A stretch of 64,000 nucleotides of DNA from an uncultured Gammaproteobacteria bacterium (GCA_963790015.1 CAWBMW010000017.1:14252-78251), one strand, 5' to 3'. Positions 963 to 64,000 are shown, counted from the first letter of the stretch. Program-made: numbers and translations. The notes: generated by a model from the letters alone, not told the origin.

Positions 963-1258
<296 letters not shown>

Positions 1259-5665: not shown

Positions 5666-5776
5666 GGGTCACAGTCTTCCCGGGCACGTTCCGGTGTAAT
5701 GCGCGGCGCTTTTGGGGGTGCTGAGCCGCTGTTCACGACCTCATTCTAAGCCCTTGTCCCAAAAGGGTGATTGGTC

Positions 5777-5802
5777 GTTACAAAGTGTTACAGGGTGTTA
5801 CC
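5777..5802. promoter_or_regulatory. three direct repeats GTTACA-N4-GTTACA-N4-GTTACC (10-bp period); candidate OmpR-family operator
   Basis: Seen directly in the lower-GC divergent region between the regulator start (5665) and small ORF 5914. Confidence 0.4.
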
Positions 5803-5913
5803 CGCGTGAAAGGAAAGTGCAATGCACGGTCCCTATAGTACGCGCACCCAAAGGACTTGGGCTGACTGCGACCTGACTGCACACGCGACGGCATGACTAC
5901 ACATGGAGAGTGG

Positions 5914-6027
5914 ATGATGTTCCGGAATTTCAATTTCAACGATATCGAGCTGCTTGGCGAAGTGATGCTGGCGACCGTCGCGCTGCTGGTGCCGGTGCTG
6001 GCCTTCACGCTGTTCCTGACGGCCTGA
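5914..6027 (+). CDS. candidate 37-aa small membrane protein
   Basis: GGAGAG at 5905-5910, then ATGATG. Translation is MMFRNFNFNDIELLGEVMLATVALLVPVLAFTLFLTA with one TM helix. It is below the ORF-track size cut-off. Confidence 0.35.
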   Translation: MMFRNFNFNDIELLGEVMLATVALLVPVLAFTLFLTA

Positions 6028-6076
6028 CCCGTGCGGGCCGGAACGGTGATCCTCCGGTTCCGGCTCGCATTGGTGA

Positions 6077-6625
6077 CTACCCGGTAACGACCGCACCGGC
6101 CGCCGGCGGCCAGCGCTGGTTCACCCGTTCGGTGGCCAGGACCAGCAGCGGCACCGCCAGCGCCCAGACCACCGCCAGCACGCCGTACACCACCACGCCG
6201 CTGGCCAGCAACTCGGCCGCCCCCAGCTTGATCCCCGCCACGTAGGCCAGCGGGCCACCAATGGCCCCGAGCGCCGCTGCCAGCAGGTAGCGGCCGTGGA
6301 GCCAGCGCATGGACCCGTTCAGGGTCAGCGCAAAGTTGACCCACATGCCCAGGATCCAGTACGGCGCCACGGCCGCGAACGGCAGCGGCTCGGCGTAGGC
6401 CAGCAGATTCGCCTGGATGAAAGCGGTGTCGACGACGAAGCCCACGGCGCAGGCGATCAGCACGATCACGATCTCGGCCCGTGGATTGGCGACGGACCGG
6501 AAATGCCAGGCCGTGAACGCCACCAGCGCGATGGCGCCCAGCCAGGAACGATGCGTGCCAGCCCCGAACAGGCTCAGGAACCAGACCGACTGGAACCCGA
6601 GGAAGTTGATCAGGGCATTGAGCAC
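6077..6625 (-). CDS. polytopic inner-membrane protein, DUF2878-like
   Basis: Intact 182-aa ORF with 5-6 hydrophobic helices. The N-terminus MLNALINFLGFQSVWFLSLFGA resembles DUF2878 members. Confidence 0.55.
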   Translation of the reverse strand: MLNALINFLGFQSVWFLSLFGAGTHRSWLGAIALVAFTAWHFRSVANPRAEIVIVLIACAVGFVVDTAFIQANLLAYAEPLPFAAVAPYWILGMWVNFALTLNGSMRWLHGRYLLAAALGAIGGPLAYVAGIKLGAAELLASGVVVYGVLAVVWALAVPLLVLATERVNQRWPPAAGAVVTG

Positions 6626-6647
6626 TTGGGGCTTCTGCCAGCAGAGG

Positions 6648-7493
6648 CTATTTCCAGCGGCTCCGGGTCTCGGCCATCTGCCGGGTGCCGATGCGCATGT
6701 CCAGCCGGCGATTGAACTCGTCCATGCCCAGCACCTTCTGGGGCAGGACGTTCATCGGGTCCGTGCGGTAGCCCAGTTCGCGAATCTTGTAGTCGTATTC
6801 CTGCTGGGCCGCCCGCTCCTGCTCGGGCACCGTGTCGGCGTCATCGAGCCACTTGAACCAGCGGTCCACGAACTTCACCAGGTACTTCTCGCAGGTGCCG
6901 ATGTTGTCGTCATTGAGTTCGGCGTGGGAGCTCGTGGCGATCGGCGACATCATGGCCCGCAGGTAGGTGCCGTGGCTGACGAAGCGGGTCCACTTCGGGT
7001 CGCTGCGGAACTGGAGGAACTCCTGGTTGGCCGGCTCGTAGTACTTGAGCAGGTAGTCGTAGTTCGTGCGCAGGTCCACGCGCGGCATGTACTCGGCGTA
7101 GAAGTACAGCTTCGGAATGGTGCCGAAGATGATCCCGAGGTGCGGCACGCGGTTCTGCTGGCTTAAGAAAACCGTGGCGTTCATGTCGAGGATGCTGGCC
7201 TTGCGGTTGCCGAGCCAGGAGTGCACGAGCCAGTCCACGTCCGTGCCGGAGTAGGCCTTGAAGCAGCCCTCGAGCTGGCCGTCCGCCGAGGCCCAGTAGT
7301 CCTCGCCTTCGGTCTGCGGGTGGCGCTGCACGGCGAAGCGGGCCTGCACCCGGTCTGCGATCTTCGAGTGGATGTTCCAGCAGCGCTCCCAGGCCCTGGA
7401 GACGTCGACGTTCGGATTCTCGGCCAGGAACTCCATGATGGTCTTCGTCTCGGTGCCCTTGGTGGCGTGGGCTTCGTTGGTCTGGGCTTGCAT
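6648..7493 (-). CDS. conserved hypothetical soluble protein (function unknown)
   Basis: Intact ORF with protein-like composition. ATG at 7493 (MQAQTNEAH...); the track start at 7517 is a TTG. Confidence 0.6.
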   Translation of the reverse strand: MQAQTNEAHATKGTETKTIMEFLAENPNVDVSRAWERCWNIHSKIADRVQARFAVQRHPQTEGEDYWASADGQLEGCFKAYSGTDVDWLVHSWLGNRKASILDMNATVFLSQQNRVPHLGIIFGTIPKLYFYAEYMPRVDLRTNYDYLLKYYEPANQEFLQFRSDPKWTRFVSHGTYLRAMMSPIATSSHAELNDDNIGTCEKYLVKFVDRWFKWLDDADTVPEQERAAQQEYDYKIRELGYRTDPMNVLPQKVLGMDEFNRRLDMRIGTRQMAETRSRWK

Positions 7494-7570
7494 GCGGGGC
7501 CTGCGTGGGATGAACAAATGGGGGTGGGAGTTTAAGCCATAATCTCCGCGGGAGCCCCCCGGAGACCGCC

Positions 7571-8386
7571 ATGCCCACCGTGCAGATCAACGGCCACGAC
7601 ATGTACTACGAGGTCCACGGCCCGGCGGACGGCGGGGCCGGGCTCGCCCTGTGCATGGGGGGCTGGGGCACCTACTGCCACGGGGGCGAACGTCACCTGG
7701 CCCGGGGCCTGACGGATCGCTACCGGGTCCTGATCATCGATTACCGGGGCATCGGCGCTTCCACCGACGACCCGGGCCGGGAGCCCGCGATGGCGCTGCA
7801 CGCCGCCGACGTCATCGGCCTGCTCGACCACCTGGGCTGGTCCCGGGTGCACTTCGTGGGGCTCGTCGGCATGGGCGCCTGCATCGCCCAGGAAGTGGCG
7901 CTCGCGCGTCCCGACCTGGTGCGCAGCATGGTGAACATGGGGGCCTGGGCCAGCGCGGACCCCTTTCTCTACGGCCAGCTGGAGATGTTCCGGGACATCC
8001 ACCGGGATTCCGGCTTTTTCGCCTTCCAGAAGCACGTCTGCCTGATGTCCTTTCTGCCGGACTACTACAACGCGAACCGGGACAAGCTGCTCGGGCCGCA
8101 GGGGCCCTGGAGCGAGCTCAACGGGCGCTATCCCGCCCACGAGCGGCTCGTGGCGGCGTGCCTGGCCCACGACGTGAGCGCCCGGCTCCCGCAGATCCGC
8201 GTGCCAACGCTCATCGTTCACTCCGGCCAGGACCAGGTGACGGGACCGCGCACCACGCTGCCCCTCGAGCACGGCATTCCCGGCGCGGAGGGCGTGCTGA
8301 TGAGTGACGTCGCACACGTGGTGGCCGGCCGCGAGCAGAAGGCGGCCTTCGCGAAACTGCTCCTGAGCTTCCTGGAGCGTCACTAG
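7571..8386 (+). CDS. alpha/beta-fold hydrolase
   Basis: 271 aa. Has a YEVHGP...ALCMGGWG oxyanion region, a nucleophile elbow (GLVGMGA) and a C-terminal His region (DVAHV). Confidence 0.85.
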   Translation: MPTVQINGHDMYYEVHGPADGGAGLALCMGGWGTYCHGGERHLARGLTDRYRVLIIDYRGIGASTDDPGREPAMALHAADVIGLLDHLGWSRVHFVGLVGMGACIAQEVALARPDLVRSMVNMGAWASADPFLYGQLEMFRDIHRDSGFFAFQKHVCLMSFLPDYYNANRDKLLGPQGPWSELNGRYPAHERLVAACLAHDVSARLPQIRVPTLIVHSGQDQVTGPRTTLPLEHGIPGAEGVLMSDVAHVVAGREQKAAFAKLLLSFLERH

Positions 8387-8773
8387 ATGGGTACCGGCGC
8401 GAGCGCCGATGACGTGCGTGCCCAGGTCAGCAAACTGGGCATCGACGCCACGCGCCGGCACATCTTCCTGTGCTGCGACCAGACCAAGCCGAAGTGCGCC
8501 ACGCGGGAGGCGGGCCTGGAATCCTGGGAATACCTGAAGCGGCGCTTGCGGGAACTCGGGCTGGCGCCGGGCGGCGGCGTGTACCGGACCAAGGCGAATT
8601 GCCTGCAGGTGTGCATGGCCGGGCCCATCGCGCTGGTCTATCCGGATGGCACCTGGTACCGGTCCTGCACGCCGGCGGTGCTCGAACGGATCATCCAGGA
8701 ACACCTGATCGGCGGCCGGCCGGTCGAGGAGTTCGTCATCGCGCAGCGGCCGTTGCCCGACCCGGAGCCGTAG
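8387..8773 (+). CDS. thioredoxin-like [2Fe-2S] ferredoxin (COG3411-type)
   Basis: [13 protein letters not shown]...[22 protein letters not shown]. The start abuts the hydrolase stop, and the TAG stop lies inside a REP arm. Confidence 0.8.
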
Positions 8774-8790
8774 GAGCGCCGACCGGCGCG
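8770..8790. repeat. GTAG-type REP, single arm
   Basis: GTAGGAGCGCCGACCGGCGCG. Confidence 0.7.
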
Positions 8791-9150
8791 CAAGGGGACC
8801 AAGGAGCCCGGCGCCCCGAGCAAATCTGACAAGAAGTACCCCGACACGGGACCTATGGCCAGACTGGAACTCGGACCGCCGGGCTTTTCGACTTGAAGGG
8901 GGCTGAAGCCGCGGGCAGGAGCCGAGTATATACATCTGCTCCCGCCCTGCACCCTGCGCGAAAATGGTCGCGGCAGCGTGCCGCATGATGGCAAAGAAGT
9001 GCGCAGCAACTGCATGATTTTATTTACCTTTACCCACCCCTCCCGGCGGCAGGCCCGGCCCTTTGCACTGCTTCAATCCGGGCTTCCGGGGCACATTTTC
9101 GGGGTTGACTTTCCAGGCCCCGCACGCCAGCCAGCCGCTATGCTGAACCC

Positions 9151-9834
9151 ATGATCACGGACCCCGCCGGGGCCATCACGCTCGTCGCTTTCTGCCGGCG
9201 CCCGGCGCCCGGCGTGGGCAAGCGCCGGCTGGCCCCGGAACTCGGTGACGCGGCCACGCTGACGATCAGCGAACTGCTGCTGGCCACCACGCTGGAAGAC
9301 CTGGCCGCGTGGCCCGGACCGCGGGTCGTGGCACCGGCGGACCCGGCCGACGAACCCTGGGCACGGTCGCTGCCCGTGGCACTCGACGACGTGGTGGCGC
9401 AACCTGACGGCAATCTCGGTGACCGGCTCGGCGCCGTGGACCGCCTCCTGCGCCAGCGGGGTCACGCCCGGCTCCTCTACATCGGCAGCGATGCGCCCGT
9501 GCTGGCGGCAGCAGATTATGGTGAGGCCGCCAGGGCGCTCGGCACCCACGACGTGGTGCTGGGGCCCGCCCTCGATGGCGGGGTCACGTGCATGGGCAGC
9601 CGCAGGGCCTGGCCCGATCTCAACCGGCTGCCGTGGAGCGGCGAGCAGCTGCACCGCGCACTGCAGGCCAGTTGCGAGTCTGCGGGCCTCACGGTGCGCA
9701 ACCTGGCGCCACGTTATGACGTGGACGTCCCCGGCGATCTGCGCCGGCTGTGCAGTGATCTGGCGACCGATGCGCGGCCTGCGCGGCGCGCCCTGTACCG
9801 GGTGCTTGCCAGTCTGGGATACTCCCGCGCATGA
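9151..9834 (+). CDS. DUF2064 / TIGR04282-like nucleotidyl-transferase-fold protein (rSAM/selenodomain-associated transferase 1 type)
   Basis: LVAFCRRPAPGVGKRRLA...LLYIGSDAPVL...VLGPALDGGVTCMG is typical of DUF2064. Overlaps the next gene by 4 nt. Confidence 0.75.
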   Translation: MITDPAGAITLVAFCRRPAPGVGKRRLAPELGDAATLTISELLLATTLEDLAAWPGPRVVAPADPADEPWARSLPVALDDVVAQPDGNLGDRLGAVDRLLRQRGHARLLYIGSDAPVLAAADYGEAARALGTHDVVLGPALDGGVTCMGSRRAWPDLNRLPWSGEQLHRALQASCESAGLTVRNLAPRYDVDVPGDLRRLCSDLATDARPARRALYRVLASLGYSRA

Positions 9835-10631
9835 GCGCTGCCGCCGGCAATATCACGAACCTGTTCGCGCCGGACGCGGCCGTGCGCGTCGGCGGCGACC
9901 CGTCGTCGCCCGCCGTCAGCGTCGTGATTCCCGTCATCGGCGACAACGAGATGCTCACGCGGCTGCTCGACCGCCTGCGCAGTCTGCCGGCGCCCCCTGA
10001 CGAGATCGTGATCGTCGATGGCGGCTCCAGTGCCGGGTGCCGCAGCCTTGCCCGTCGCTTCCGTTGCGTGTACGTCGGCACGCGGGCGGGACGCGGCCAC
10101 CAGCTGCACGCGGGCGCCCTCCGCGCTTCCGGCGACGTGCTCTGGTTCCTGCACGCCGACGCCGAGCCCCCCGTGGACGGGGTGACGCTGATCCGCAGCC
10201 GGCATCTCGCCGGAGCAGCGGGCGGCTTCTTCACCTTCCGCTTCGCGGGCGAGACCACCTGGTACAAGCGCGTGCTGGCCCACCTGATCAACTGGCGCAC
10301 CCGGTTCGGCACGCCCTACGGCGACCAGGGGCTGTTCTGCGGCCGCGCCACCTACGATGCCGTCGGCGGCTTCGCGGACACGCCGCTGTTCGAGGAAGTG
10401 CCGCTGGTACGGGCACTGCGCCGGCGGGGCGCGTTCACGCGGCTCGGCGCGGCCATCGGCGTCTCGCCACGGCGCTGGGAGCGGGACGGCTGGCTCTGGC
10501 GGAGCGCGGGCAATCGCCTCCTCGCGCTCGCCTACCTGGCGGGTGTGCCGCCCCGCAGGCTGGCCCGCCGCTACCAGCCGCTGGGACCGACGGAACTGGC
10601 GGAACTGGCAGAACCGGACCCCGAACCGTGA
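9831..10631 (+). CDS. family-2 glycosyltransferase, TIGR04283-like (rSAM/selenodomain-associated transferase 2 type)
   Basis: VSVVIPVIGDNE...EIVIVDGGSSAG...VLWFLHADAEPP...PYGDQGLFC...RRWERDGW. Confidence 0.75.
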   Translation: MSAAAGNITNLFAPDAAVRVGGDPSSPAVSVVIPVIGDNEMLTRLLDRLRSLPAPPDEIVIVDGGSSAGCRSLARRFRCVYVGTRAGRGHQLHAGALRASGDVLWFLHADAEPPVDGVTLIRSRHLAGAAGGFFTFRFAGETTWYKRVLAHLINWRTRFGTPYGDQGLFCGRATYDAVGGFADTPLFEEVPLVRALRRRGAFTRLGAAIGVSPRRWERDGWLWRSAGNRLLALAYLAGVPPRRLARRYQPLGPTELAELAEPDPEP

Positions 10632-11544
10632 TGACGCCGGTTCCGGCGACGGCGCCGGTCCCATCGTCTGCCGCCGACGGCACGGGCTGGATCCAGCCCC
10701 ACGCGCTGGACGAGCTGTGGTTCCACACCGGCACGGCCTGCAACCTGGACTGCCCGTTCTGCCTGGAGGGCTCGCGCCCCGGTGACGCCCGCCTCCAGCG
10801 CATCACGCTCGCCGACGTGCGGCCACTGATCGACGCCGCGGTGGGACTCAACGTCCGCCAGTTCTCCTTCACCGGCGGCGAGCCCTTCGTGGTGAAGGAC
10901 ATGGTCGCCATCCTGGAGTACGCCGCCGGCTTCCGGCCGTGCCTCGTCCTGACCAATGGCACTGCCCCGGTCGTGCGCCGGCTCACGCAGATCCGCAAGC
11001 TCGCCGGCACGGCGCATCCGATCGCCTTCCGGATCAGCATCGATTTCGCCGACGAGGCGCGGCACGATGCCGGCCGCGGGGCCGGCAATTTCCGCCTCGC
11101 GCTCCAGGGCCTGCGCGCGCTGCACAAGGCGGGGTTCGGCGTGTCGCTGGCCCGGCAGGTGCAGCCCGGCCGCGACGAGCCGGAGGTGGACCGCGAATTC
11201 CGGCAATTGCTGGTCGCGGAGGGATTGCCAGCCGGCCTGCGCATCGTGTCGTTCCCCGACTTCGGCATTCCCGGCGAGCAACGCCAGGTGCCGCGGATCA
11301 CGGCAGACTGCATGACGCGCTTCCAGACCGAGGCAACCCGCCGCGCCTTCATGTGCGCGTTCAGCAAGATGGCCGTCAAGCAGGGGGCCGGATGCGGATC
11401 TATGCGTGCACGCTGGTGGACGATGATCCCCGCTACGACCAGGGCGACTCTCTGGCGGACGCCCTCCGCGCCCGGGTGCTGCTCGAGCATCATCGTTGCT
11501 ACAGTTGCTTCAGGTACGGTTCCTCCTGCAGCGAATTGGGGTAG
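10631..11544 (+). CDS. radical SAM protein with Cys-rich C-terminal domain; one frameshift at the G-run 11383-11387
   Basis: CNLDCPFC (CxxxCxxC) near the N-terminus and an FTGGEPF SAM motif. The C-terminus ...RMRIYACTLVDDDPRYDQGDSL...HHRCYSCFRYGSSCSELG is in the +1 frame. The ATG overlaps the GT2 stop. Confidence 0.8.
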
Positions 11545-11547
11545 CGG

Positions 11548-12017
11548 ATGCTCGTGATCGATCCAGCCTGGGCCGGCAAGGTCCAGTTCTACGAGTTGCT
11601 CTTCGGCACCTGGACCGCCTACATCTTCCTGGTGCTCCTGTGGGAGAAGGTGCTGCGCGCGCCGCTGGCCGAGTGGCGCTACGTGCTGATGAACTTCATG
11701 GGCGCCGGCGCGTTCTGGATCAACCACTACTTCCAGAAGGCGCCCTTCTGGCTCACGATGCTGAACACTCTACACCGTGATCTACCTGCTGGTGTGGTGG
11801 TGGGTCGGTGTGAAGGGCCAGCCCCGCCCGGTGGCCTGGAAAGTTGGCGCCACGCTCTCCGCGCTGCGTCTACACGGTGGCCTTCATCAGCTTCGAGCAG
11901 CTCTCCCGCTTCGGGGTCGAGCACTACGGCGTGAACGAGTTCTGGTTCATGGCCGCCAGCTTCTTCGGCTTCATCGGCGTGATCCTCTGGCGCGGTCGGC
12001 GGCACGGCCTGACGTAG
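11548..12017 (+). CDS. small polytopic membrane protein of unknown function; two frame breaks (~11770, ~11865)
   Basis: The pieces MLVIDPAWAGKVQFYELLFGTWTAYIFLVLLW..., ...VIYLLVWWWVGVKG... and ...FWFMAASFFGFIGVILWRGRRHGLT lie in three frames. The TAG stop is inside a REP. Confidence 0.5.
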
Positions 12018-21868: not shown

Positions 21869-22140
21869 CCCGAATTCTTCCCGTGTTCCGCGTTCAGGCG
21901 GACAGGGGCAACGCACTGGCTTGGGGGACGCGCGGAAACGCGGTCTGACGACCGCGTTCGAGTCCGGCAGCCCCGCTGTCATGGACGAACTGGCGTTCGC
22001 CGGTAGACCGGTGGCTTTGCGTCCCCGCCTTTCAGCAGGTTTGCCCTTGTCGGCACGGGAATGTTGACAATTTCCGGCGGCGAATCCTGCGACCTCGCTC
22101 ACGTCCTCTCGTGCGTGAGTAAAATTGCACTGCGCTTATG

Positions 22141-53469: not shown

Positions 53470-54770
<1,301 letters not shown>

Positions 54771-54779
54771 GAGCGCGTT

Positions 54780-54835
54780 GTAGGAGCGCCTTCAGGCGCG
54801 ATCGAAACTTGAATCGCGCCTGAAGGCGCTCCTAC
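54780..54835. repeat. GTAG-type REP 56-bp hairpin, preceded by a partial arm at 54767-54779
   Basis: GTAGGAGCGCCTTCAGGCGCGATCGAAACTTGAATCGCGCCTGAAGGCGCTCCTAC. Confidence 0.9.
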
Positions 54836-54849
54836 AGCCACGACACGAA

Positions 54850-54878
54850 GGGCCGGCCCCGCAAGGCGCCGGCCCTTT
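54850..54878 (+). terminator. weak candidate intrinsic terminator after icd
   Basis: GGGCCGGC-N10-GCCGGCCC followed by only TTT. Confidence 0.3.
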
Positions 54879-54918
54879 GCATTGGTGCTGTGCGGAGAAA
54901 CCCGGCGAATAGCAGCGA

Positions 54919-55497
54919 TTGTCCGGTTGCCCGGACCCGGGCAGGCCCTATCCTGAGTCGGTGACCACTCACCCGCGCATTGACACCGCGCCGATAGCCA
55001 GCTGCATCATCGTCGTGCGCGGCGTACGGGTGCTGCTGGATCGAGATCTGGCAGACCTCTACCGCGTCCGGGCCATCGCGCTCCGGCAGCAGGTGAAGCG
55101 GAACCGGGCACGGTTCCCGGCGGACTTCATGTTCCAGCTGACGCCCAGAGAGGTCGCCGGCCTACTATCACAATCTGTGATACCTCGCCTGACAAGGCGA
55201 GGCGGATCAATGCCTTACGTGTTCACCGAACAGGGCGTGGCGATGCTCTCCAGCGTCCTTTCCAGCGACCGGGCGGTGGCGGTGAACATCGCGATCATGC
55301 GGGCGTTCGTGCAGGTGCGATCGATGCTGGCGACCAACCAGGAGCTGTCGGAGCGCCTCCTGGAGCTTGAGCGGCAGGTCGCCTCCAATGATGCATCGAT
55401 TACCACCCTGTTCGACGCCATCCGGCAACTGATGGCCATACCCCAGGCGGGCAGCCGGCCCATTGGCTTCACCGCGGATTTGGATGGCGCCGGTTGA
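54919..55497 (+). CDS. ORF6N (KilA-N-related) DNA-binding domain protein
   Basis: VRGVRVLLDRDLADLYRVRAIALRQQVKRNRARFPADFMFQLT...PYVFTEQGVAMLSSVLSSDRAVAVNIAIMRAFV. Start codon uncertain. Confidence 0.8.
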   Translation: MSGCPDPGRPYPESVTTHPRIDTAPIASCIIVVRGVRVLLDRDLADLYRVRAIALRQQVKRNRARFPADFMFQLTPREVAGLLSQSVIPRLTRRGGSMPYVFTEQGVAMLSSVLSSDRAVAVNIAIMRAFVQVRSMLATNQELSERLLELERQVASNDASITTLFDAIRQLMAIPQAGSRPIGFTADLDGAG

Positions 55498-55507
55498 CGG
55501 ACTGACG

Positions 55508-56474
55508 CTAACCCCGGTCCAGCGGACTCTTCACCCCCTTCGCCCCCTTCCCCATGACGTGCGTGTAGATCATCGTGGTCTTCACGTCGCTGTGGCCGAG
55601 CAGCTCCTGCACCGTGCGGATGTCGTAGCCGTCCTCGAGCAGGTGGGTGGCGAAGCAGTGGCGTAGCGTGTGCGGGCTGGCCGGCTGCGTGATGCGCGCA
55701 GCCCGGATCGCGGTGCGCATGGCACGCTGGATGGTCTTCTCGTGCAGGTGATGACGGATCGGGCGCCCCGAGTACGGATCCCGGCACAGGGACGTGGACG
55801 GGAAGACGTATTGCCAGCCCCACTGGGTGCCGACGCCCGGGTACTTCGCCGCGAGCGCCATGGGCACCGACACGCCCGGGCTCGCCCCGGCGCCGCTGCT
55901 CGTCGAACCAGCCCCGCAGGCGCGCGAGGTGCGCCCGCAGCGGCAGCGCGACCGCCGCCGGCAGGACCGTCACCCGGTCCTTGCCGCCCTTCCCGTCCCG
56001 GACGATCAGCTCGCCCCGCTCCAGCGCCAGGTCCTTGACCCGCAGTCGCAGCGCTTCCGTCACCCGCAGCCCGCTGCCGTAGAGCAGTTGCGCCACCAGC
56101 AGCGCCGTACCCTGGAGGCCCGCCAGGACTGACCGAACCTCGTCCCGGGTCAGCACCACCGGGAGCCGCTGCGGCCGGCTCGCCCGGGTGACGTTCTCCA
56201 GCCAGGGCAGGTCGACCCCCAGCACATTACGGTAAAGGAACAGCAGGGCCTGTAGCGCCTGGTTCTGGGTGCTCGCGCTGACCTTGCGGCGGACCGCCAA
56301 ATGGGTCAAGAATCGCTCCACGCCCTCCGCACCCAGGTCCCGGGGATGCTGCCGCTCATGGAACTGCACGTACCGCCGAATCCACTGCAGGTAGGCCTGC
56401 TCGGTGCGATACGCCAGATGCCGGGTGCGCATCTTCTCCCTCGCCACCTGCAGCAGCCCCGGCCCCTCGCCCAT
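55508..56474 (-). CDS. intI: integron integrase IntI (tyrosine recombinase); one frame break ~55875
   Basis: Collinear by eye with IntI1. Matching segments are [63 protein letters not shown], the IntI-specific insert [21 protein letters not shown], and [39 protein letters not shown]. Confidence 0.9.
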
Positions 56475-56610
56475 GCGCCCTATCCCTCCGGCCGCTTAGG
56501 CGACATCGCCGTGGCCCCCAGAGAATGGAATCAGGACCTTGCCCCAACCACCACCAGACTATCCGACGCTTTCGACCAGTTTTATCCCCCACTTCGTCCC
56601 CCTACATATA

Positions 56611-56617
56611 GTTAGGC
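56611..56617 (+). other. attI core site GTTAGGC (candidate cassette insertion point)
   Basis: First GTTRRRY downstream of the divergent intI start. The first cassette ORF starts 4 nt later. Confidence 0.5.
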
Positions 56618-56621
56618 GTCT

Positions 56622-56924
56622 ATGTCCAGTTGTACGCTCGATCACGTTCCCATTCGTGGTTCTGGCGGCGATTGCGGGCGGGTCTTGAGCCTGTATGCGG
56701 CACGCCTTAGCGTCGTTGAATTTTCCCTTTACGTAGGGGCGATTCAGACTGGTTTCTCCACTGCTGGAGTCTTTGTCGTGTGCTATCCCGCCCTATTGAT
56801 CGCGCGGCGAATTGCTGGCGCAACTCCTCGCAAACGGACTTATGGACTCCCCCCGCAAGTCGGGCGAGTGATCGATAGTGATGGCCGCGGGGATTTCGCC
56901 TGCAGTCGTATATCCGGCATCTAA
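56622..56924 (+). CDS. first-cassette ORF, hypothetical (weak)
   Basis: 100-aa ORF starting right after attI. Composition is not strongly protein-like, and the region downstream is scrambled by an IS remnant. Confidence 0.2.
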   Translation: MSSCTLDHVPIRGSGGDCGRVLSLYAARLSVVEFSLYVGAIQTGFSTAGVFVVCYPALLIARRIAGATPRKRTYGLPPQVGRVIDSDGRGDFACSRISGI

Positions 56925-57142
56925 GGTGGGCTCTGAATGGCCCGTGCCGACATGGAATCTGCGTCACCGAGGCGCCAGTCGATACAAGCGGCAGGCGAAG
57001 CTGCCGGAAGAGTTATCGGCGTCTCTCGGTGTGGGGTGAACCCGGTTGGCCATGATGGTCGATCAATCTCGTCGCAAGCGTGTGGTGGGTCGTCAGTCTT
57101 AAGCTCGCGGCATCGCGAAGGCCCGCGCTCGAGCTTCACGGC

Positions 57143-57905
57143 TCAGTCGCGCTGCGTCCGTAACGGCTCCTGGTCTCTGAGCGTGGCGTAGCAGATGCGC
57201 GCCAGCTTGTTGGCCAGCGCGCAGGCGGCCTTGTTGTGGTTCGAGCGTCTCTGCACATCCAGGGCCCAGCGGCGCAGGCGCCATCGACGCTTTGCCGCGC
57301 GGTCGTGCGCGACGCTTGGCCGCTCGCAGCACGCTCCTGGCGCCGTGCGTCAGCAGCATGCGCAGGTAGCGGTCCCCGTGCTTGCGAGATCCGCCGAGGT
57401 GGCGGCTACTGCCCGAGGAGTGCTCCTTCGGCGTCAAGCCCGAACCAGCTGGCGAAGTGCCGTGCATCCTTGAAGTGGCCGACGATCACCCGAGTGGCCG
57501 CCACCATCGCCGTGGCGGTGCAGCAGGCCGATGCCGGGCATCGACAGCAGCGTGGTGCAGGCCGGCGACTCACTTGGCCAGCGCTGCGCAACTCACGCTC
57601 CAGCTGGGAGACGGGCTTCGAGCAAGCGGATCTCCTCGACGAGCAACGTCAGCGGTGCCTCGAAACAGCATCCGGGATCGCCGTGCTGGGATCGGCGAGC
57701 ACCCGGCCGATCGGCTCGACGCCCGATGCGGCTACCCATCGGGAATGCGCGATGCCAAACTCCGGCAGAAGCCGCGCAGGGCGTTGATCCGCGAGTACGG
57801 GTTGCCATCCACAGCGCCACGGGTACGGTGCAGCGCCTGCAAGCGCCTGTTGCTCCACGCGACTTGACGCGCACCGGTACAGATCTCGGCGCAGCGCGCA
57901 CCCAT
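57143..57905 (-). pseudogene. IS110-family (IS1111-like) transposase remnant, 5'-truncated and multiply frame-broken
   Basis: The pieces VEQQALQALHRTR, RINALRG / LLPEFGI, GHFKDARHFASWFGL / TPKEHSSGSSRHLGG.SKHGDRYLRMLLTHGARSVLRAA and NHNKAACALANKLARICYATLRDQEP lie across three frames. The N-terminal DEDD region is absent. Confidence 0.7.
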
Positions 57906-58474
57906 GCACCGGCGCCCTCTGCTCATCGGGATAGTAGCCATGTCACTTGTGGGCGTAGGCATGTTGTCGTGGAGGCTAGGGTCGTCCCTGTCAATGTCCG
58001 CAACGACTCGGGAGGCCAGCGGCTCTGAGATCCCGGCGGAGCGCATTGCCGCCATCGCCTCCGGCGAGGTTGCAGAGTTCGTGTCATTCGGCACGCCACT
58101 GTTAGTCCTTCGTCCATCACCTGCTCAATTGCAAGCTGTGGCTGACCTCAACAATCACGTCTGGAATGGTCAGTGGTCTGGGTACGACAAAGAACATGGG
58201 CTATTCATCTACTGGGGTGTAAGTACGCGCTTTCGGTGTAAATTGCAGCATATCCCCCAGGGAGAGTCCCCTCTTGGAGTTCGGCACGGGTTACCGCTGG
58301 CTCGGCGGCTATTTCGACCCCTGCCACGACTCTAGTTACGACTACGCGGGTCGCACAATCAAGTCCCTTACGTACACCCGAAATGGTTTCAATGCGGAGG
58401 TACCAAACTTGCGAGCACCTGAACATCGCTTTCGCCGAGATGGCACGCTTGTCGTCTATCCCGAAGCCAGCTAA
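57904..58474 (+). CDS. cassette protein: bc1-type Rieske-fold homologue lacking most [2Fe-2S] ligands; one frame break ~58270
   Basis: RR plus TM N-terminus (MHRRPLLIGIVAMSLVGVGML). It has GVSTRFRC in place of CTHLGC and GGYFDPCHDSSYDYAGR in place of GGWFCPCHGSHYD. The stop TAA lies in the attC inverse core. Confidence 0.6.
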
Positions 58475-58522
58475 CCAACCGCTCCACCGGTCGCCAGGCG
58501 CCGGTGAGCTCAATCGTTAGGC
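58469..58522 (+). repeat. attC recombination site (54 bp)
   Basis: AGCTAAC...imperfect palindrome...GTTAGGC. Confidence 0.75.
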
Positions 58523-58525
58523 AAC

Positions 58526-58984
58526 ATGAAAGTACGTTGGGCAGCCGTCGCTTGTCTTGTGGTTGGCCATCACGCCACGGCCGCACAGCGAAATTTGTCT
58601 TGCCCGGCGGCCACAGTCCTTCCTGATCTAGACGGTGCGTACCACGCGTGCTCCAACGGCTATGTTGACGGAAGCTGCCAGCGATTCATTGAGGCGTTCA
58701 AAAAGCTCACGGGCCGGTATGACTGTCAGCGCTCGTTTGATACCGACCCTGTGCCAGCCGTTTGGCTCGCACCACGCGGAGCGGTTGAAGATTTCGTACG
58801 GCTAACGTGGCGCCTCGCCTCAGATTCGCAATTCAAGGACAAGCTGTATAAGGACGTACGCACCGAAGCGCGTGCCTTCTTTGGAAGCGCGGATTTCCAA
58901 GGCGTTCTGGACGGAGCCCTAGCGGAGGATTACCTAGGGAAATCACAGCGCGTTGCCAGGGAACTGAAAGAGTCAGGGCCGTGA
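58526..58984 (+). CDS. cassette ORF, secreted Cys-containing hypothetical protein
   Basis: 152 aa, signal-like MKVRWAAVACLVVGHHATAA. Starts 4 nt after the attC core. Confidence 0.6.
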   Translation: MKVRWAAVACLVVGHHATAAQRNLSCPAATVLPDLDGAYHACSNGYVDGSCQRFIEAFKKLTGRYDCQRSFDTDPVPAVWLAPRGAVEDFVRLTWRLASDSQFKDKLYKDVRTEARAFFGSADFQGVLDGALAEDYLGKSQRVARELKESGP

Positions 58985-58988
58985 CGCT

Positions 58989-59072
58989 GCCTAACCAACG
59001 GTTCCAGCCGACGCCGGCGCTTGGCGCCGATTCCCTCACCGCACTCGGCGCGGCTGAACCGAGACGTTATGT
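58989..59072 (+). repeat. attC recombination site (84 bp)
   Basis: GCCTAAC...GTTATGT. Confidence 0.65.
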
Positions 59073-59139
59073 GACAAAGCCGAGCGAAAGCGTGGATTCT
59101 GGCGTTGACCCCCTCCATGGACCGATCTAAGGTGCTGAC

Positions 59140-59370
59140 ATGAAATCGGACCAATCGACCCTTGAGGATCAGATTTCCCGGTTACCTGACCGGGAACGAG
59201 CCCGGTTGGCACTTCGGCTTCTGGAGAGCCTGGAGCCGGGGTCAGACGAGAATGTCGATGAACTCTGGCTGGACGAAGCTGAACGCCGTCTTGGGGACTA
59301 CGACAAGGGCTTGACCGAGGCCCGTGATGCCGACGAAGCAATTGCCGAGATCGAGCGCCACCTTAGATGA
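59140..59370 (+). CDS. type II antitoxin (addiction-module component, TIGR02574-like)
   Basis: RLPDRERARLALRLLESLEPG...DELWLDEAERRLGDYDKG. Overlaps the toxin gene by 4 nt. Confidence 0.75.
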   Translation: MKSDQSTLEDQISRLPDRERARLALRLLESLEPGSDENVDELWLDEAERRLGDYDKGLTEARDADEAIAEIERHLR

Positions 59371-59660
59371 CGCAAATTCGACTTCTCCCGGAGGCCGAGG
59401 AGGAGTTGCAGGCTGCTGCCAGGTTCTACGAAGCGCTGCGGCTGGGCTTGGGGCTGGCTCTGCTTCAGGAGGTACGTCGCGCTAGAGAGCGTATCGCCGA
59501 GCGGCCGAGGGCATCACGCATCGAGCGTGGTGATATTCGGGTCCGAAGCATTCTCCGATTCCCCTATCGGCTTTATTATCGAGTCCGCGCCGACGAGATT
59601 GTCATCATAGCAGTCGGCCATCGGCGTCGACGACCGGGGTTCTGGCGTAGCCGAACTTAG
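59367..59660 (+). CDS. RelE/ParE-family type II toxin
   Basis: IRLLPEAEEELQAAARFYE...FPYRLYYRVRADEIVIIAVGHRRRRPGFW. Confidence 0.8.
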   Translation: MTQIRLLPEAEEELQAAARFYEALRLGLGLALLQEVRRARERIAERPRASRIERGDIRVRSILRFPYRLYYRVRADEIVIIAVGHRRRRPGFWRSRT

Positions 59661-59662
59661 TC

Positions 59663-59749
59663 ACATAACAAATCGCTGATGCTGACCGTGACAGATAAAG
59701 CGTCAAAGACGAAACCGCGGCGTGCGGCCGCTCAGCTCCAACGTTAGAG
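59663..59749 (+). repeat. attC recombination site (87 bp)
   Basis: ACATAAC...GTTAGAG. Confidence 0.65.
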
Positions 59750-59755
59750 CGCCGG

Positions 59756-60067
59756 ATGAAGACGTCACTGTCCATAGCGTTACTGATTGCTGCCGGCTTC
59801 GCAGTTAAGGCATCGCTCGATGAGGCAGAACGTTATGTCCACGTTCGAATCGTCGATACGTGCTTTGCCAAATACTCAGCCCCTCTATCCAAGGCACAGG
59901 AACTCGCGTGCTATGAGTCGCCACGTCAGAGTTCGGCCTACCGGGTCCTTGCCGCATTGGCCTTTCAGCCACAACTATGGAAGAACACTGGGGGACGGTG
60001 CGTGGATTCGCAGGATCAACAGCGTGAGTACTTCGATTGCGGGTGGTGGAACCGTGTCGCGCTCTAA
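59756..60067 (+). CDS. cassette ORF, small secreted Cys-rich hypothetical protein
   Basis: 103 aa, signal MKTSLSIALLIAAGFAVKA, 4 Cys. Confidence 0.55.
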   Translation: MKTSLSIALLIAAGFAVKASLDEAERYVHVRIVDTCFAKYSAPLSKAQELACYESPRQSSAYRVLAALAFQPQLWKNTGGRCVDSQDQQREYFDCGWWNRVAL

Positions 60068-60163
60068 TCAATCGCTCCACCGAGCGCCTGCCGCACCTGT
60101 CACGCGGCTTGCAAGCGAAACCCGCGCGCCAGCCGCTGGCGCCGCTGAGCTCAATCGTTAGGC
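60062..60163 (+). repeat. attC recombination site (102 bp), paralogue of 61268-61368
   Basis: CTCTAATCAATCGCTCCACCG...GCTTGCAAGCG...GAGCTCAATCGTTAGGC. Confidence 0.75.
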
Positions 60164-60168
60164 CTGCC

Positions 60169-60594
60169 GTGTCGTATCAGTTTGCGGTTTCCTTCTACGC
60201 GCTAACGTTGGGTTACATCGTGTTCACGGGACTAAGCGGAGGACTTCAACCTCCTCCAGAAACTGCCGCCATTATTCTGCTTTTATCGGGTCCGTTGATT
60301 CTCGTGATTCTGCGCTGGCATCGTGTCCGCCGTCGCGGAGCTCTGCTGGTACCCCATGAATACCTTAATACCCGACGGATTGGCCGATACGCCGGAGTCG
60401 CACTACTCTGGGCAGGTCATCTTCCAGTTTTGGCAGCCGTGATCTTCCTGTGGGCCGGCCTAATGGGCTCGGGGGTCGGCACCTTTGTCCCCGCCATTGG
60501 GATGGCCTGTATCACGTCATTATTGCTCTATGCGCTAGCTGTGCTGACAATCGAGATCAGCATCCGGCGATGGCAGACGTCGGGGAAGGCCTAA
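60169..60594 (+). CDS. cassette ORF, 4-TM membrane protein of unknown function
   Basis: The GTG at 60169 lies just after the attC core. Four hydrophobic helices. The stop is in the next inverse core. Confidence 0.55.
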   Translation: MSYQFAVSFYALTLGYIVFTGLSGGLQPPPETAAIILLLSGPLILVILRWHRVRRRGALLVPHEYLNTRRIGRYAGVALLWAGHLPVLAAVIFLWAGLMGSGVGTFVPAIGMACITSLLLYALAVLTIEISIRRWQTSGKA

Positions 60595-60683
60595 CTTGGC
60601 GCTCCACACGGACGCGCCCCAGGCGCGTACCTCGTGGGAGGCATAACGATGAAGGGGCGCGCCGGTCAGCTCAGGCGTTATCG
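60589..60683 (+). repeat. attC recombination site (95 bp)
   Basis: GCCTAAC...GTTATCG. Confidence 0.65.
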
Positions 60684-60691
60684 GGCAGCAT

Positions 60692-61249
60692 GTGATGGCC
60701 TATTTTGAAGACCTGACGAAGTACCAGTACTCGGGAAGGCCACAATCTGGCGTCCTCAATGTAGGCTGGCTAGCCGAGGATCGGCCGTTTAACGTCGGCA
60801 CGACATCTGAGGCATTTCACACCGCACTTAGGGATATGTGCGACAACAAGTCGATGAACCTTTGCTTTGGCCACCATGTCTGCGAGTTCTGCCCGGGTGC
60901 ATCCTGGAGTGATCCATATTTTCACAGCAATGGAAACGGTGAGATCCGCGTCCGCGGAGTTGACGGCACCTGGTATGTCGCACCTCGCCTAGTTCTTCAC
61001 TACGTAGTCGCGCATGACTATTGCCCGCCCAAGGACTTCATTGAGGCAGTATTGAACCCGGCTGAGATTGGGCAAGATCCGGAGCCGGTGCGATTGAGTG
61101 AAGACGAGCAAACAGAACGCATTCGCGAATGGGATAAACGTATGCGGGCCGAACGCGGCCCTCCACTTACTGAAGCAGAAATGGATCGAATCGTGAAGTG
61201 GGGGATTCGGAACACAGGCTCACAAAAGCCGTGGTGGCGATTCTGGTAA
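60692..61249 (+). CDS. cassette ORF, conserved-looking hypothetical protein with Cys/His cluster
   Basis: 185 aa. Contains NLCFGHHVCEFCPG and VLHYVVAHDYCPP. Confidence 0.6.
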   Translation: MMAYFEDLTKYQYSGRPQSGVLNVGWLAEDRPFNVGTTSEAFHTALRDMCDNKSMNLCFGHHVCEFCPGASWSDPYFHSNGNGEIRVRGVDGTWYVAPRLVLHYVVAHDYCPPKDFIEAVLNPAEIGQDPEPVRLSEDEQTERIREWDKRMRAERGPPLTEAEMDRIVKWGIRNTGSQKPWWRFW

Positions 61250-61267
61250 TCGAACGCGCACATACCC

Positions 61268-61368
61268 GATAATCAATCGCTCCACCGGTCGCCGAATGCG
61301 TCTTTCACGCGGCTTGCAAGCGCAACCCGCGCGCCAGTCACTGGCGCCGGTCAGCTCAAGCGTTAGAC
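61268..61368 (+). repeat. attC recombination site (101 bp)
   Basis: GATAATCAATCGCTCCACCG...GCTTGCAAGCG...CAGCTCAAGCGTTAGAC. Confidence 0.75.
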
Positions 61369-61437
61369 GGCACATATCCAGCGAATAACGGAGCTTTAGC
61401 AGATTGCGGAAATAGCTGCCACCGTTAGCGTTGGCGC

Positions 61438-61632
61438 ATGAAGGTGAGTGAAGTACTTCGACTACTCCTCGACGATGGCTGGTACCTCGTAGCGACACGC
61501 GGTAGCCACCGCCAGTTCAAGCACCGGATTAAGTCAGGTCGGGTCACCGTCCCAGGCAAACCCGGTGACGATTTGGCGCCGGGGACTCTGAACAGTATCC
61601 TCAAGCAGTCCGGCCTGAAGAAACCAGGGTGA
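61438..61632 (+). CDS. hicA: HicA-family mRNA interferase toxin
   Basis: LLDDGWYLVATRGSHRQFKHRIKSGRVTVPGKPGDDLAPGTLNSILKQSGL. Confidence 0.85.
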   Translation: MKVSEVLRLLLDDGWYLVATRGSHRQFKHRIKSGRVTVPGKPGDDLAPGTLNSILKQSGLKKPG

Positions 61633-61635
61633 TTT

Positions 61636-61848
61636 ATGCGCTACGCGATCGTGATTGAGGCGGCAGGCACCAACTTCTCGGCATACGTTCCCGATCTGCC
61701 AGGCTGCGTTGCAACTGGGACCACAGTCGAAGCTACAGAGCAGGCCATACGTCAGGCAATCGCATTTCACCTCGATGGGCTTCGAGAGGACGGCACCCCG
61801 ATTCCCCCGCCGCTGAGCCGGGTTGACTACGTCGAGGTCGCCGCCTAA
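61636..61848 (+). CDS. hicB: HicB-family antitoxin (short form)
   Basis: MRYAIVIEAAGTNFSAYVPDLPGCVATGTTVEATEQAIRQAIAFHLDGLREDG. Confidence 0.8.
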   Translation: MRYAIVIEAAGTNFSAYVPDLPGCVATGTTVEATEQAIRQAIAFHLDGLREDGTPIPPPLSRVDYVEVAA

Positions 61849-61930
61849 CCAATCGCTGGAGCGTTCGCGTGAATATTGCAGCGCCAGAACACACCCACTC
61901 CACGCGCGGCGCTCAGCTCAGACGTTAGGC
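61843..61930 (+). repeat. attC recombination site (88 bp), canonical cores
   Basis: GCCTAAC (RYYYAAC)...GTTAGGC (GTTRRRY). Confidence 0.8.
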
Positions 61931-61979
61931 CGCACGAGTACCTGCTCCACACGATCGCCAGTACTCGAGGAGTTCCGCC

Positions 61980-63827
61980 ATGCGCAAGACCCTGCTCTCC
62001 CTTCTCTTCATCCTCGTCATTGGACCCGCGCTGGCGGAGCGCACGCAGAAGCCCCCACTGCACGGCAAGGATTGGATGGCTGTCACCGGCAAGCCCCTCG
62101 GCGCCGCGGCCGGCGCGCGCATCTTCATCCAGGGCGGCAACGCCGTCGACGCGGCTTGCGCCATGCTCGCCGCCACCGCGACGATGTGGGACGTGCTGCA
62201 CTGGGGCGGCGAGACACAGGCGCTCATCTGGGACCCGCGCGCGAAGAAGGTTGTCGGCATCAACGCACTCGGCGTGGCGCCAACCGGCGCGACTCCGGAG
62301 TTCTTCGCCGCCAGAGGCCTCGATTACCCGCCGCCGTACGGCCCGCTCGCGGCGGTAACGCCGGGCACACCGGGTGGGCTGCTGGTGATGCTCGCCGAGT
62401 ACGGCAGGCTGTCGCTGGCGCAGGTGCTGCAGCCGGCGATCGAGATGGCCGACGGCTACCCCATGGAGGGCCAGACGGCGCGCTACATCGAGGAAGACCG
62501 CAAGGAGATCGAGCAGTGGCCCGATTCGAAGCGCCTGTTCTTCCCCAACCCGGGCGGCAAGGCCCCCGACCCGGGCCAGCTGTTCCGCCAGCCCGAGCTG
62601 GCCGCCACATTGCGCAAGCTGGTCGACGCCGAGCGCCAGGCGCTGGCGGCCGGAGCTGACCGCAAGACGGCGATCCGCGCGGCCTACGACCGTTTCTACA
62701 AGGGTGACATCGCCGAGCAGCTCGTCGCCAGCGTACGCGCGCAGGGCGGGCTGTTCACGCGGGAGGACCTGGCGAACTGGCAGGTGCGCATCGAGGAGCC
62801 GGTGAAAACCAGCTACAAGGGCATCGACGTCTACAAGCTCACCGCCTGGACGCAGGGACCAGTGATGCTGCAGGCGCTGAACATCCTGGAGAACTTCGAC
62901 CTGAAGGCGATGGGCTACAACAGCACGCGCTACGTACACACGGTGTACCAGGCCATGAACCTGGCCTATGCCGACCGCGATTTCTACTACGGCGACACCA
63001 CGCAGCCGCCCGAGGAGCCGGTGGCCGGGCTGCTGTCGAAGGACTACGCGAGGGCGCGCGCGAGGCTCATCAACGCCGAGCGCAACGACGCTGCAGCGTC
63101 GCCCGGTGACCCGTACCCTTTCCAGGGCGGCCGCAACCCGTACCTGGAGCAGCTGAAGCGCTGGAACGAGCCGCGAGCGAAGCACCCCGCGCCCCCCGGG
63201 GGCACGCCGGTGAGTTCGCTGGACCCAATGAGCGGGTCGTTCTTCGCGGGGACAACGTCGGTCGTCGCGGCCGACAAGGAAGGCTGGCTGGTTTCGATCA
63301 CGCCGAGCGGCGGCTGGATCCCGGCGGTGGTCGCCGGCCCGACCGGCATCGGGCTGTCACAGCGCATGCAGAGCTTCGTACTCGACGCCGCCGAGAACCC
63401 GTTCAATGTGCTCGCGCCCGGCAAGCGGCCGCGCGTGACGCTGACGCCAACGATGGCGACAAAAGATGGCTCACCGTGGCTGGCGTTCGCGGTCCAGGGC
63501 GGCGACGGGCAGGACCAGCACCTGCTGCAGTACTTCCTGAACATCGTCGAGTTCGGCATGACGCCGCAGGAGGCGGCCGAGGCACCGGCGTTCGTCAGCG
63601 AGCAGATGCGCGAGTCGTTCGAGCAACACGCGTCGAAGGCGGGCGCGATCTGGCTCAACGACGTGACGCCGCCCTACGTGCGCAGCGAACTTGGTCGCAT
63701 GGGCTACGAGCCGAGCTACGGCGCCCGCACGATGGGGCCGATCAACGCGATCCTGATCGACCCGAAGTACGGCACCTTCTGGGGCGCGTCGGGGAACCAC
63801 GGCGAGGATTACGGCATCGGTTGGTAG
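61980..63827 (+). CDS. ggt: gamma-glutamyltransferase-family protein (Ntn hydrolase), secreted; carried as an integron cassette
   Basis: Intact 615 aa. Has a signal peptide, GGNAVDAACAM, the nucleophile region FFAGTTSVVAADKEGWLVSITPS, and a C-terminal GASGNHGEDYGIGW. Confidence 0.85.
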   Translation: MRKTLLSLLFILVIGPALAERTQKPPLHGKDWMAVTGKPLGAAAGARIFIQGGNAVDAACAMLAATATMWDVLHWGGETQALIWDPRAKKVVGINALGVAPTGATPEFFAARGLDYPPPYGPLAAVTPGTPGGLLVMLAEYGRLSLAQVLQPAIEMADGYPMEGQTARYIEEDRKEIEQWPDSKRLFFPNPGGKAPDPGQLFRQPELAATLRKLVDAERQALAAGADRKTAIRAAYDRFYKGDIAEQLVASVRAQGGLFTREDLANWQVRIEEPVKTSYKGIDVYKLTAWTQGPVMLQALNILENFDLKAMGYNSTRYVHTVYQAMNLAYADRDFYYGDTTQPPEEPVAGLLSKDYARARARLINAERNDAAASPGDPYPFQGGRNPYLEQLKRWNEPRAKHPAPPGGTPVSSLDPMSGSFFAGTTSVVAADKEGWLVSITPSGGWIPAVVAGPTGIGLSQRMQSFVLDAAENPFNVLAPGKRPRVTLTPTMATKDGSPWLAFAVQGGDGQDQHLLQYFLNIVEFGMTPQEAAEAPAFVSEQMRESFEQHASKAGAIWLNDVTPPYVRSELGRMGYEPSYGARTMGPINAILIDPKYGTFWGASGNHGEDYGIGW

Positions 63828-63885
63828 ACCGTACCGGACACCGCCCCTGGTGTTCTATAGTGAGCCGGGAGGCCTGCGCGGTGTC

Positions 63886-63945
63886 GCCTAACCCTTCGCC
63901 CGAGCCGACCCGCAATGGCAGAGCGGCTCACCTCAACCGTCAGGC
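63886..63945 (+). repeat. attC recombination site (60 bp), degenerate core
   Basis: GCCTAAC...GTCAGGC. A new ORF (ATG 63961) starts after it and runs off the window. Confidence 0.55.
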
Positions 63946-64000
63946 ACCTGGAGAAACGCCATGACGCAGAGCAGTTCTGCAACTTCTGGCGCTTCCTCGG

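Follow-up and report, generated by a model that had tools for sequence, protein, structure and literature searches.

A chromosomal integron downstream of icd in an uncultured Steroidobacteraceae-like gammaproteobacterium

The 64,000-nucleotide stretch GCA_963790015.1 CAWBMW010000017.1:14252-78251 (hereafter the window, to which all coordinates refer) comes from an uncultured gammaproteobacterium and very probably carries a chromosomal integron just downstream of icd, the gene for NADP isocitrate dehydrogenase, in a Steroidobacteraceae-like host. A minus-strand integrase gene, intI, is followed on the side of its start codon by an attI core and, on the opposite strand, by an array of cassettes with eight visible attC sites. 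Every integron-defining feature that was tested is present save an uninterrupted intI frame; the break in this frame is probably an assembly artefact, as discussed below.

Integrase, attI and attC sites

intI occupies positions 55508 to 56474 on the minus strand and is read in two frames joined at about 55877: the N-terminal 200 codons, from the ATG at 56474, and the C-terminal 121 codons, ending at 55508, lie in different frames, and the repaired product has 321 residues. This product matches the 'integron integrase' model TIGR02249 with 447 bits (cutoff 265), covering model positions 2-314 of 315; it aligns to IntI1 with 53% identity over 313 residues and no gaps, and end to end with VchIntIA (PDB 2A3V; 287 bits). 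It also matches the Pfam family PF00589, with 119.6 bits. XerC- and XerA-type structures match it in two pieces, skipping residues 184-239, the integron-specific insertion; residues 190-245 align gaplessly to both IntI1 and VchIntIA. TIGR02249 and the alignments thus show the additional domain that sets IntI apart, between patches II and III, and each catalytic residue (R, K, HxxR, H, and Y) has its counterpart in VchIntIA and IntI1; the protein is therefore an IntI and not a generic Xer recombinase. The equivalents of W219, P232, and HH240-241, which in VchIntIA contact the extrahelical bases, are conserved in the alignment as well. The closest integrases come from genomes of uncultured Gammaproteobacteria or Steroidobacteraceae. 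A first-pass annotation, made from the sequence by eye, had described 55508-56474 as one minus-strand gene collinear with IntI1, with the integron-specific insertion and the catalytic C-terminus, and had named a generic XerC/D-like recombinase without the IntI-specific domain as the alternative. The insertion, the catalytic residues and the gapless collinearity all stand, the last only once the two frames are joined; the single open frame does not, the +1 indel having escaped notice.

Upstream of intI, the spacer at 56475-56610, which presumably contains the promoter, ends in the conserved CTACATATAG of attI. The attI site adjoins intI and diverges from it; its core, GTTAGGC, lies on the plus strand at 56611-56617, 136 nt from the intI start codon, with the G|TTRRRY crossover between G56611 and T56612, and an ATG follows at 56622, 4 nt after the core. 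In an alignment of the intI-upstream regions of six genomes (the window and the related loci L001, L002, L003, L004, and L010), the sequence is shared as far as CTAC(A/T)TATAG|TTAG, past which the six are unrelated, and blastn matches of this region to relatives end at 56615-56624. Homology breaks at TATAG|TTAG, which is the expected crossover point of attI, and the earlier placement of attI, about 135 bp upstream of the intI start with an open reading frame (ORF) 4 nt further on, agrees with this six-genome breakpoint.

The attC sites, all on the plus strand, were scored with two covariance models, R1 built from the eight window sites and R2 from 150 sites of relatives only. S1 (58469-58522, 54 bp) reaches 60.5 bits with R1 and 55.9 with R2; the corresponding scores are 69.5 and 52.6 for S2 (58989-59072, 84 bp), 63.1 and 43.8 for S3 (59663-59749, 87 bp), 85.3 and 43.4 for S4 (60062-60163, 102 bp), 69.5 and 29.3 for S5 (60589-60683, 95 bp), 84.6 and 44.1 for S6 (61267-61368, 102 bp), 80.1 and 63.4 for S7 (61843-61930, 88 bp), and 50.3 and 25.0 for the degenerate S8 (63886-63945, 60 bp). 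Over the 64 kb, R1 gives these sites 50-85 bits and its next-best match 13.5; R2 finds exactly the same eight, at 25-63 bits, with the next best at 16. Applied to 42 related loci, R1 finds 163 sites, of which all but a few lie upstream of intI on the other strand. R2 was also run, as a positive control, on 12 kb containing a clinical class 1 integron: the aac(6')-Ib attC there receives 45.6 bits, and nothing else exceeds 7.3. The eight imperfect palindromes of 54-102 bp that the first-pass annotation had taken for attC sites are thus accepted by both models, and the possibility it had raised, that a covariance model would reject most of them, is answered by R2, which keeps all eight.

When the bottom strands of S1 to S8 are folded, as had been proposed, they show pairing between R' and R'', an unpaired spacer of 5-6 nt, and an L stem. 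The alignment of the sites contains 17 pairs, with 91% of cells paired and compensatory double changes in 7 of the pairs; none of 500 shuffles reaches the observed pairing score, and no slid register comes close. Two columns on the '' arm of the L stem (alignment columns 17 and 25) are unpaired. In S1, indexed by hand, the R boxes pair, and in the L stem of the bottom strand 4 paired bases precede a bulged G and 5 more separate it from a bulged A, a layout resembling that of attC(aadA7); read from the alignment, the first bulged base is a G on the bottom strand in six of the eight sites. In S8, R' is GTCAGGC and does not begin with GTT, and the L stem has several mismatches; the counterpart in the related locus L086 is GTTAGGT.

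From one site to the next, R'' is complementary to the preceding R' at 7, 7, 6, 7, 6, 6, and 7 of 7 positions, or 46 of 49 overall, as against 33 of 49 when R'' is compared with the R' of its own site; of all 5040 permutations of the order, none exceeds 46 and 24 reach it. Because recombination takes place at G|TT, the final six bases of an R' are part of the cassette that follows; the match between R'' and the previous R' is the signature of cassette recombination. The sites as a group are heterogeneous: S4 and S6 are paralogous, with 82% identity, but every other pair reaches 67% at most. Of the host-adapted attC family that had been proposed, the paralogy of S4 and S6 is confirmed, but the family does not extend beyond this one pair.

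The window also contains a dispersed repetitive extragenic palindromic (REP)-like repeat, with the core GTAGGAGCGCCTTCAGGCGCGA and its complement, which is unrelated to the attC sites; copies lie at 54775-54836 and near 12014, 12086, 31676, 34151, 35795, 35862, and 43027.

Cassettes and the disrupted start of the array

The array comprises at least nine cassettes, whose ORFs are all on the plus strand, as had been noted before. From S1 onwards, cassette 3 (58517-59066) encodes a protein of 152 residues and unknown function (58526-58984), and cassette 4 (59067-59743) an antitoxin of the Unstab_antitox family (59140-59370; PF09720) together with a ParE toxin (59367-59660; PF05016). Cassette 5 (59744-60157) has an ORF of 103 codons (59756-60067) whose product begins with a hydrophobic stretch resembling, by eye, a signal peptide. 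The product of cassette 6 (60158-60677; ORF 60169-60594, about 141 residues from the GTG at 60169) is hydrophobic and, by eye, membrane-protein-like, and has no family match. Cassette 7 (60678-61362) encodes a DUF7919 protein of 185 residues (60692-61249; PF25535, 130 bits), and cassette 8 (61363-61924) a HicA toxin (61438-61632; PF07927) with a HicB-like antitoxin (61636-61848; PF15919). The toxin-antitoxin cassettes, 4 and 8, have leaders of 67-69 nt. Cassette 9 (61925-63939) is occupied by ggt, which encodes a gamma-glutamyltranspeptidase of 615 residues (61980-63827; PF01019). Beyond S8, which follows ggt, a further plus-strand ORF starts at 63962 and is cut by the window end at 64000; the statement of the first-pass annotation that the array runs off the window thus rests on the ggt cassette, S8, and this ORF. 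A search with PADLOC returned no defence-system match among the cassette proteins.

GC content is 0.55-0.62 over 56.5-61.9 kb, against 0.65-0.75 outside, and the GC-poor stretch reported earlier (56.6-61.9 kb) is to this extent real; it is interrupted at 57.0-57.9 kb, where the value rises to 0.67-0.70. The GC content of ggt is similar to that of the host, and an end of the array at 61930, with ggt as a core gene, was considered on this ground; it was rejected when S8 was found and when the ggt of L086, 90.4% identical without gaps, proved to lie in a different array with attC sites on both sides (7864-7954 and 9897-9967). Since the gene is attC-flanked in L086, ggt is a cassette in spite of its host-like composition, and S8 is a real attC site. 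We suggest, tentatively, that a housekeeping-type gene of 2 kb circulates as a cassette in this gene pool.

The L086 array itself (3700-10900) has at least seven attC sites and co-oriented cassettes for Ank, SBP_bac_3, L-PSP, cupin, ggt, and short-chain dehydrogenase products, and lies after dnaB-PhoU_div-DUF456. On the side where intI would be expected, the 3.7 kb of sequence contain no visible integrase, and the array may be an integrase-less attC cluster.

Two more cassettes recur elsewhere in the same manner. Cassette 4 is 95.7% identical, over 700 bp without gaps, to a cassette in the L001 array, and the Rieske-like cassette described below is 76% identical to one in L002; like ggt in L086, both are bounded by attC sites and have other neighbors. 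Comparison of these three cassettes across arrays shows that cassettes have moved between them.

The first 1.9 kb of the array, from attI to S1, consists of a first cassette, the remnant of an insertion sequence (IS), and a frameshifted second cassette, features that had been missed earlier. Cassette 1 (56612-57030, plus strand, the right-hand limit being approximate) has an ORF at 56622-56924 whose 100-residue product has no family match, and it is without an attC: neither R1 nor R2 finds a site above noise between 56617 and 58469. The IS remnant lies on the minus strand at about 57031-57890 and is of the IS110/IS1111 type, with Transposase_20 recognized on two ORFs and a match to NF033542; its best blastn matches are ISPa25 and ISPa21. 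Mapped by tblastn, it covers only residues 142-343, approximately, of the ISPa25 transposase, in several frames with stops; no DEDD N-terminal domain, element ends, or flanking attC halves are recognizable, and no intact copy is present in the window or in the related loci examined. This remnant accounts for the GC-rich block at 57.0-57.9 kb. Cassette 2 (57895-58516), which begins right after it, carries the Rieske-like gene, with an ATG at 57904 and a stop at 58474; the gene is split by a +1 shift at about 58270 and has a 9-bp in-frame deletion relative to the L002 copy, which is a single intact ORF of 190 codons.

ISPa25 is one of the insertion sequences that target attC sites (PMC11187229). 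In plasmid pHPA0698-3 it interrupts the attC of blaOXA-17, its transposase gene running against the cassettes, and the remnant has the same orientation. The simplest reading is that an element of the IS1111-attC type once inserted into the attC between cassettes 1 and 2, that is, the attC of cassette 1, and then decayed, which would have fused the two cassettes into one immobile block.

The integron most likely works as follows. As a tyrosine recombinase, IntI would recombine double-stranded attI, at G|TTAGGC (56611/56612), with the folded bottom strand of an attC to insert a cassette, and attC with attC to excise one. The cassettes read away from intI, and a promoter between intI and attI would presumably drive them; the ParE and HicAB cassettes probably carry promoters of their own and stabilize the array. 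Both the present activity and the promoter are inferred.

Chromosomal setting and the state of intI

icd lies on the plus strand at 53470-54770, recognized by TIGR00183/NF005425 (NCBIfam) on fragments and by three-frame translation. It is followed by a REP-like palindrome (54775-54836) and the icd terminator hairpin, which together occupy 54775-54890 on the plus strand; homology with relatives ends at 54890. Between this point and intI, and convergent with the latter, is a gene for an ORF6N-domain protein (54919-55497, plus strand; Pfam PF10543, 97 bits), which also matches the PADLOC candidate defence family PDC-S05 with 168 bits. The array thus sits directly after icd and an ORF6N gene, just as the first-pass annotation had it. 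Phage-type integration into icd would leave a second copy of the icd 3' end; a search for one returned only REP-like repeats.

Conservation of this location, which had been left as a question, holds within a sub-clade. The icd-ykuD synteny beside intI is common to the window, L001, L002, and L017, and L005 and L085 carry the icd end. The interval between icd and intI varies: it contains the ORF6N gene in the window; a small ORF, an ORF6N gene, and an RHH/PemK pair in L001; two small ORFs and HicB in L002; and three small ORFs in L085. Most other relatives place intI elsewhere, 22 loci near a PIN-domain gene followed by pyrD or a SpoU gene (the two being ambiguous, with overlapping ORFs) and 5 at another site. 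Anchorage at icd is therefore specific to the sub-clade formed by the window and five relatives (L001, L002, L005, L017, and L085), not to the wider family.

Among the relatives with intI elsewhere, L004, L013, L014, L021, L025, L038, and L039 have related integrases heading long arrays with very uniform attC sites of 120-126 bp, spaced 300-600 bp apart; these arrays are of the classical sedentary type. All of them but L004 share the site by the PIN-domain gene and the pyrD or SpoU gene. In L003 (11000-16800), whose IntI is 86% identical, intI is flanked not by icd but by ORFs that appear, by eye, to be relaxase-, replication-initiator-, and HipA-like, and this integron may lie next to a mobile element or be carried by one.

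Within the sub-clade, the parts of the locus have diverged to different degrees. When the window regions 55508-56615 and 59048-59747 are compared with L001, intI (55508-56474) is 95.8% identical, the non-coding intI-attI spacer 96.4%, and the ParE toxin-antitoxin cassette 95.7%; for ykuD the value is 86.4%, for the upstream core 84.9%, and for the ORF6N gene 78.8%. These figures hint at the possibility that the icd-anchored platform was recently exchanged between species, by homologous recombination or by transfer at a conserved site, an idea that we put forward with reserve. If true, a 'sedentary' integron would be passing as a whole between members of one genus of uncultured soil bacteria.

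Elsewhere in the window, an Rfam scan finds a c-di-GMP-I-GGC riboswitch (21962-22054, minus strand, 71 bits) and a tRNA (1186-1258, minus strand). GC skew changes sign over the window and does not reveal the direction of replication.

The frameshift in intI consists of one extra C in GCCCGGGC at about 55877. It is absent from four relatives (L001, L002, L003, and L085); L085, a short contig from a public sequencing run, is 96.8% identical to the window. The gene icd is itself read in three frames, with +1 insertions at 53758 and 54482 that are specific to the window relative to L001, L002, and L017, in all three of which, the icd-flanked relatives compared, icd is intact with 432 codons; one of the two lies in the context GCCCGGGC, identical to that of the intI insertion. 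Over 8.2 kb aligned with L001 and L002 there are five 1-nt insertions private to the window, about one per 1.6 kb: the two in icd and those at 48190, 48215, and 51502, several of them in short C runs. Private 1-nt deletions at cleanly aligned sites number zero over the same stretch, the sole 1-nt gap (50425) adjoining a 15-nt gap in poor alignment. These insertions look like systematic error of long-read assembly, and any pseudogene call in the window is suspect. Many of the relatives are 'MFD' metagenome-assembled genomes with megabase contigs, which we take to be long-read assemblies. L001 has a deletion of its own in intI, of 1 nt at the position matching window 55593, with a called product of 296 residues; this again fits assembly indels in such genomes.

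A number of observations weigh against a functional integron, or against the evidence for it. In the deposited sequence intI lacks a continuous reading frame, and chromosomal integrons often carry integrase pseudogenes (PMC12444791). The IS remnant, the frameshifted Rieske-like gene, the missing attC, and the GTC in place of GTT at the crossover of S8 all fit some decay. A scan of 56200-56700 found no sigma-70 consensus promoter, a result that is uninformative in so GC-rich an organism, and R2 is only semi-independent, its training sites having been selected by R1. The points that concern decay can be drawn together into the view that the integron is an inactive relic, with a real frameshift at 55877, immobile cassettes, and an array decaying like many of the ilvD-linked integrons of Xanthomonas, in which inactivated intI is frequent (PMC12444791); we hold this to be distinctly the less probable reading. 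The same type of indel occurs twice in the housekeeping gene icd, once in an identical context, while icd is intact in three relatives; the cleanly aligned window-specific 1-nt indels are all insertions, as systematic error would give; and the extra C is the only lesion in the window intI, which otherwise matches intact copies at 96-97% identity. Given indels of the same type in icd, and four relatives without the extra C, we regard the intI frameshift as probably an assembly artefact. For annotation in general, a single-base indel in a long-read metagenome-assembled genome can make an intact integrase look pseudogenic.

Two other readings concern the nature of the element rather than its state. 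That there is no integron at all, merely an XerC/D-like recombinase which happens to lie beside REP-type palindromes, might be thought of because high-GC genomes are rich in palindromic repeats and the window has a REP-like family of its own; it is refuted by the integron-specific domain of the integrase, and by palindromes that match a model recognizing a clinical attC, are confined to the array and to a single strand, and bound cassettes common to other arrays. A mobile integron, carried by a transposon or plasmid within the contig, would account for attC sites heterogeneous in length and sequence, for an identity to L001 of about 96% in intI, spacer, and one cassette as against about 85% in the core flank, and for the relaxase-, replication-, and HipA-like neighbors of intI in L003. 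Nevertheless it is very improbable: the flanks are core genes whose synteny (icd, ykuD, and upstream) is kept in L001, L002, and L017, neither transposition genes nor inverted repeats flank the platform, and the relatives of this IntI occupy lineage-specific chromosomal sites.

Relation to known integrons

The integron at icd is genuine but ordinary, and chromosomal integrons of its kind are routinely catalogued; understanding of how integrons work is unchanged by it. Its value is as a documented case, with clear limits, of a chromosomal integron in an uncultured lineage from soil; no paper turned up in a full-text search combining 'integron' and 'Steroidobacteraceae'.

A sedentary chromosomal integron is said to have a long array, with more than about 19 attC sites, homogeneous attC sites, and vertical inheritance. 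Eight attC sites are visible before the window end, and the closest relative, L001, has about eight. The integron described here resembles the sedentary type (Cury et al. 2016) in its fixed chromosomal site, icd, shared by related species, and differs from it in that the attC sites are not mutually similar. With the Vibrio cholerae superintegron it shares an integrase that aligns end to end with VchIntIA, and toxin-antitoxin cassettes; its attC sites, however, are 54-102 bp long with a single pair at 82% identity and form no uniform VCR-like family, and the 9-10 cassettes visible in the window compare with about 180. The likeness to class 1 integrons lies in the integrase (53% identical to IntI1, without gaps), in the GTTAGGC core of attI, and in short attC sites with the layout R''-L''-L'-R', R2 giving the aac(6')-Ib attC 45.6 bits; the Tn402/tni backbone, qacE-delta-1/sul1, and resistance cassettes of that class are absent from the window, and the context is chromosomal and syntenic.

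The IS remnant compares best with the IS1111-attC group (ISPa25, ISPa21, ISPst6, ISKpn4; Tetu & Holmes 2008; Post & Hall 2009; PMC11187229): its transposase is closest to those of ISPa25 and ISPa21, it lies exactly where an attC is missing, and it is oriented opposite to the cassettes, like ISPa25 in the blaOXA-17 attC. It departs from the group in showing only about 200 of 352 residues, in several frames with stops.

A close parallel is with the integrons of Xanthomonas anchored downstream of ilvD (Gillings et al. 2005; PMC12444791). There, too, intI lies at a fixed housekeeping-gene flank within a lineage, the arrays are small to medium and differ among relatives, intI is disrupted in some members, and insertion sequences occur in the arrays. 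The window differs in its anchor, icd, in its uncultured, Steroidobacteraceae-like host, in an intI disruption that is probably an assembly error, and in an anchorage confined to a sub-clade, the window and its five relatives. To ilvD in Xanthomonas, icd adds a second case of a housekeeping gene whose flank is a lineage-specific integron anchor.

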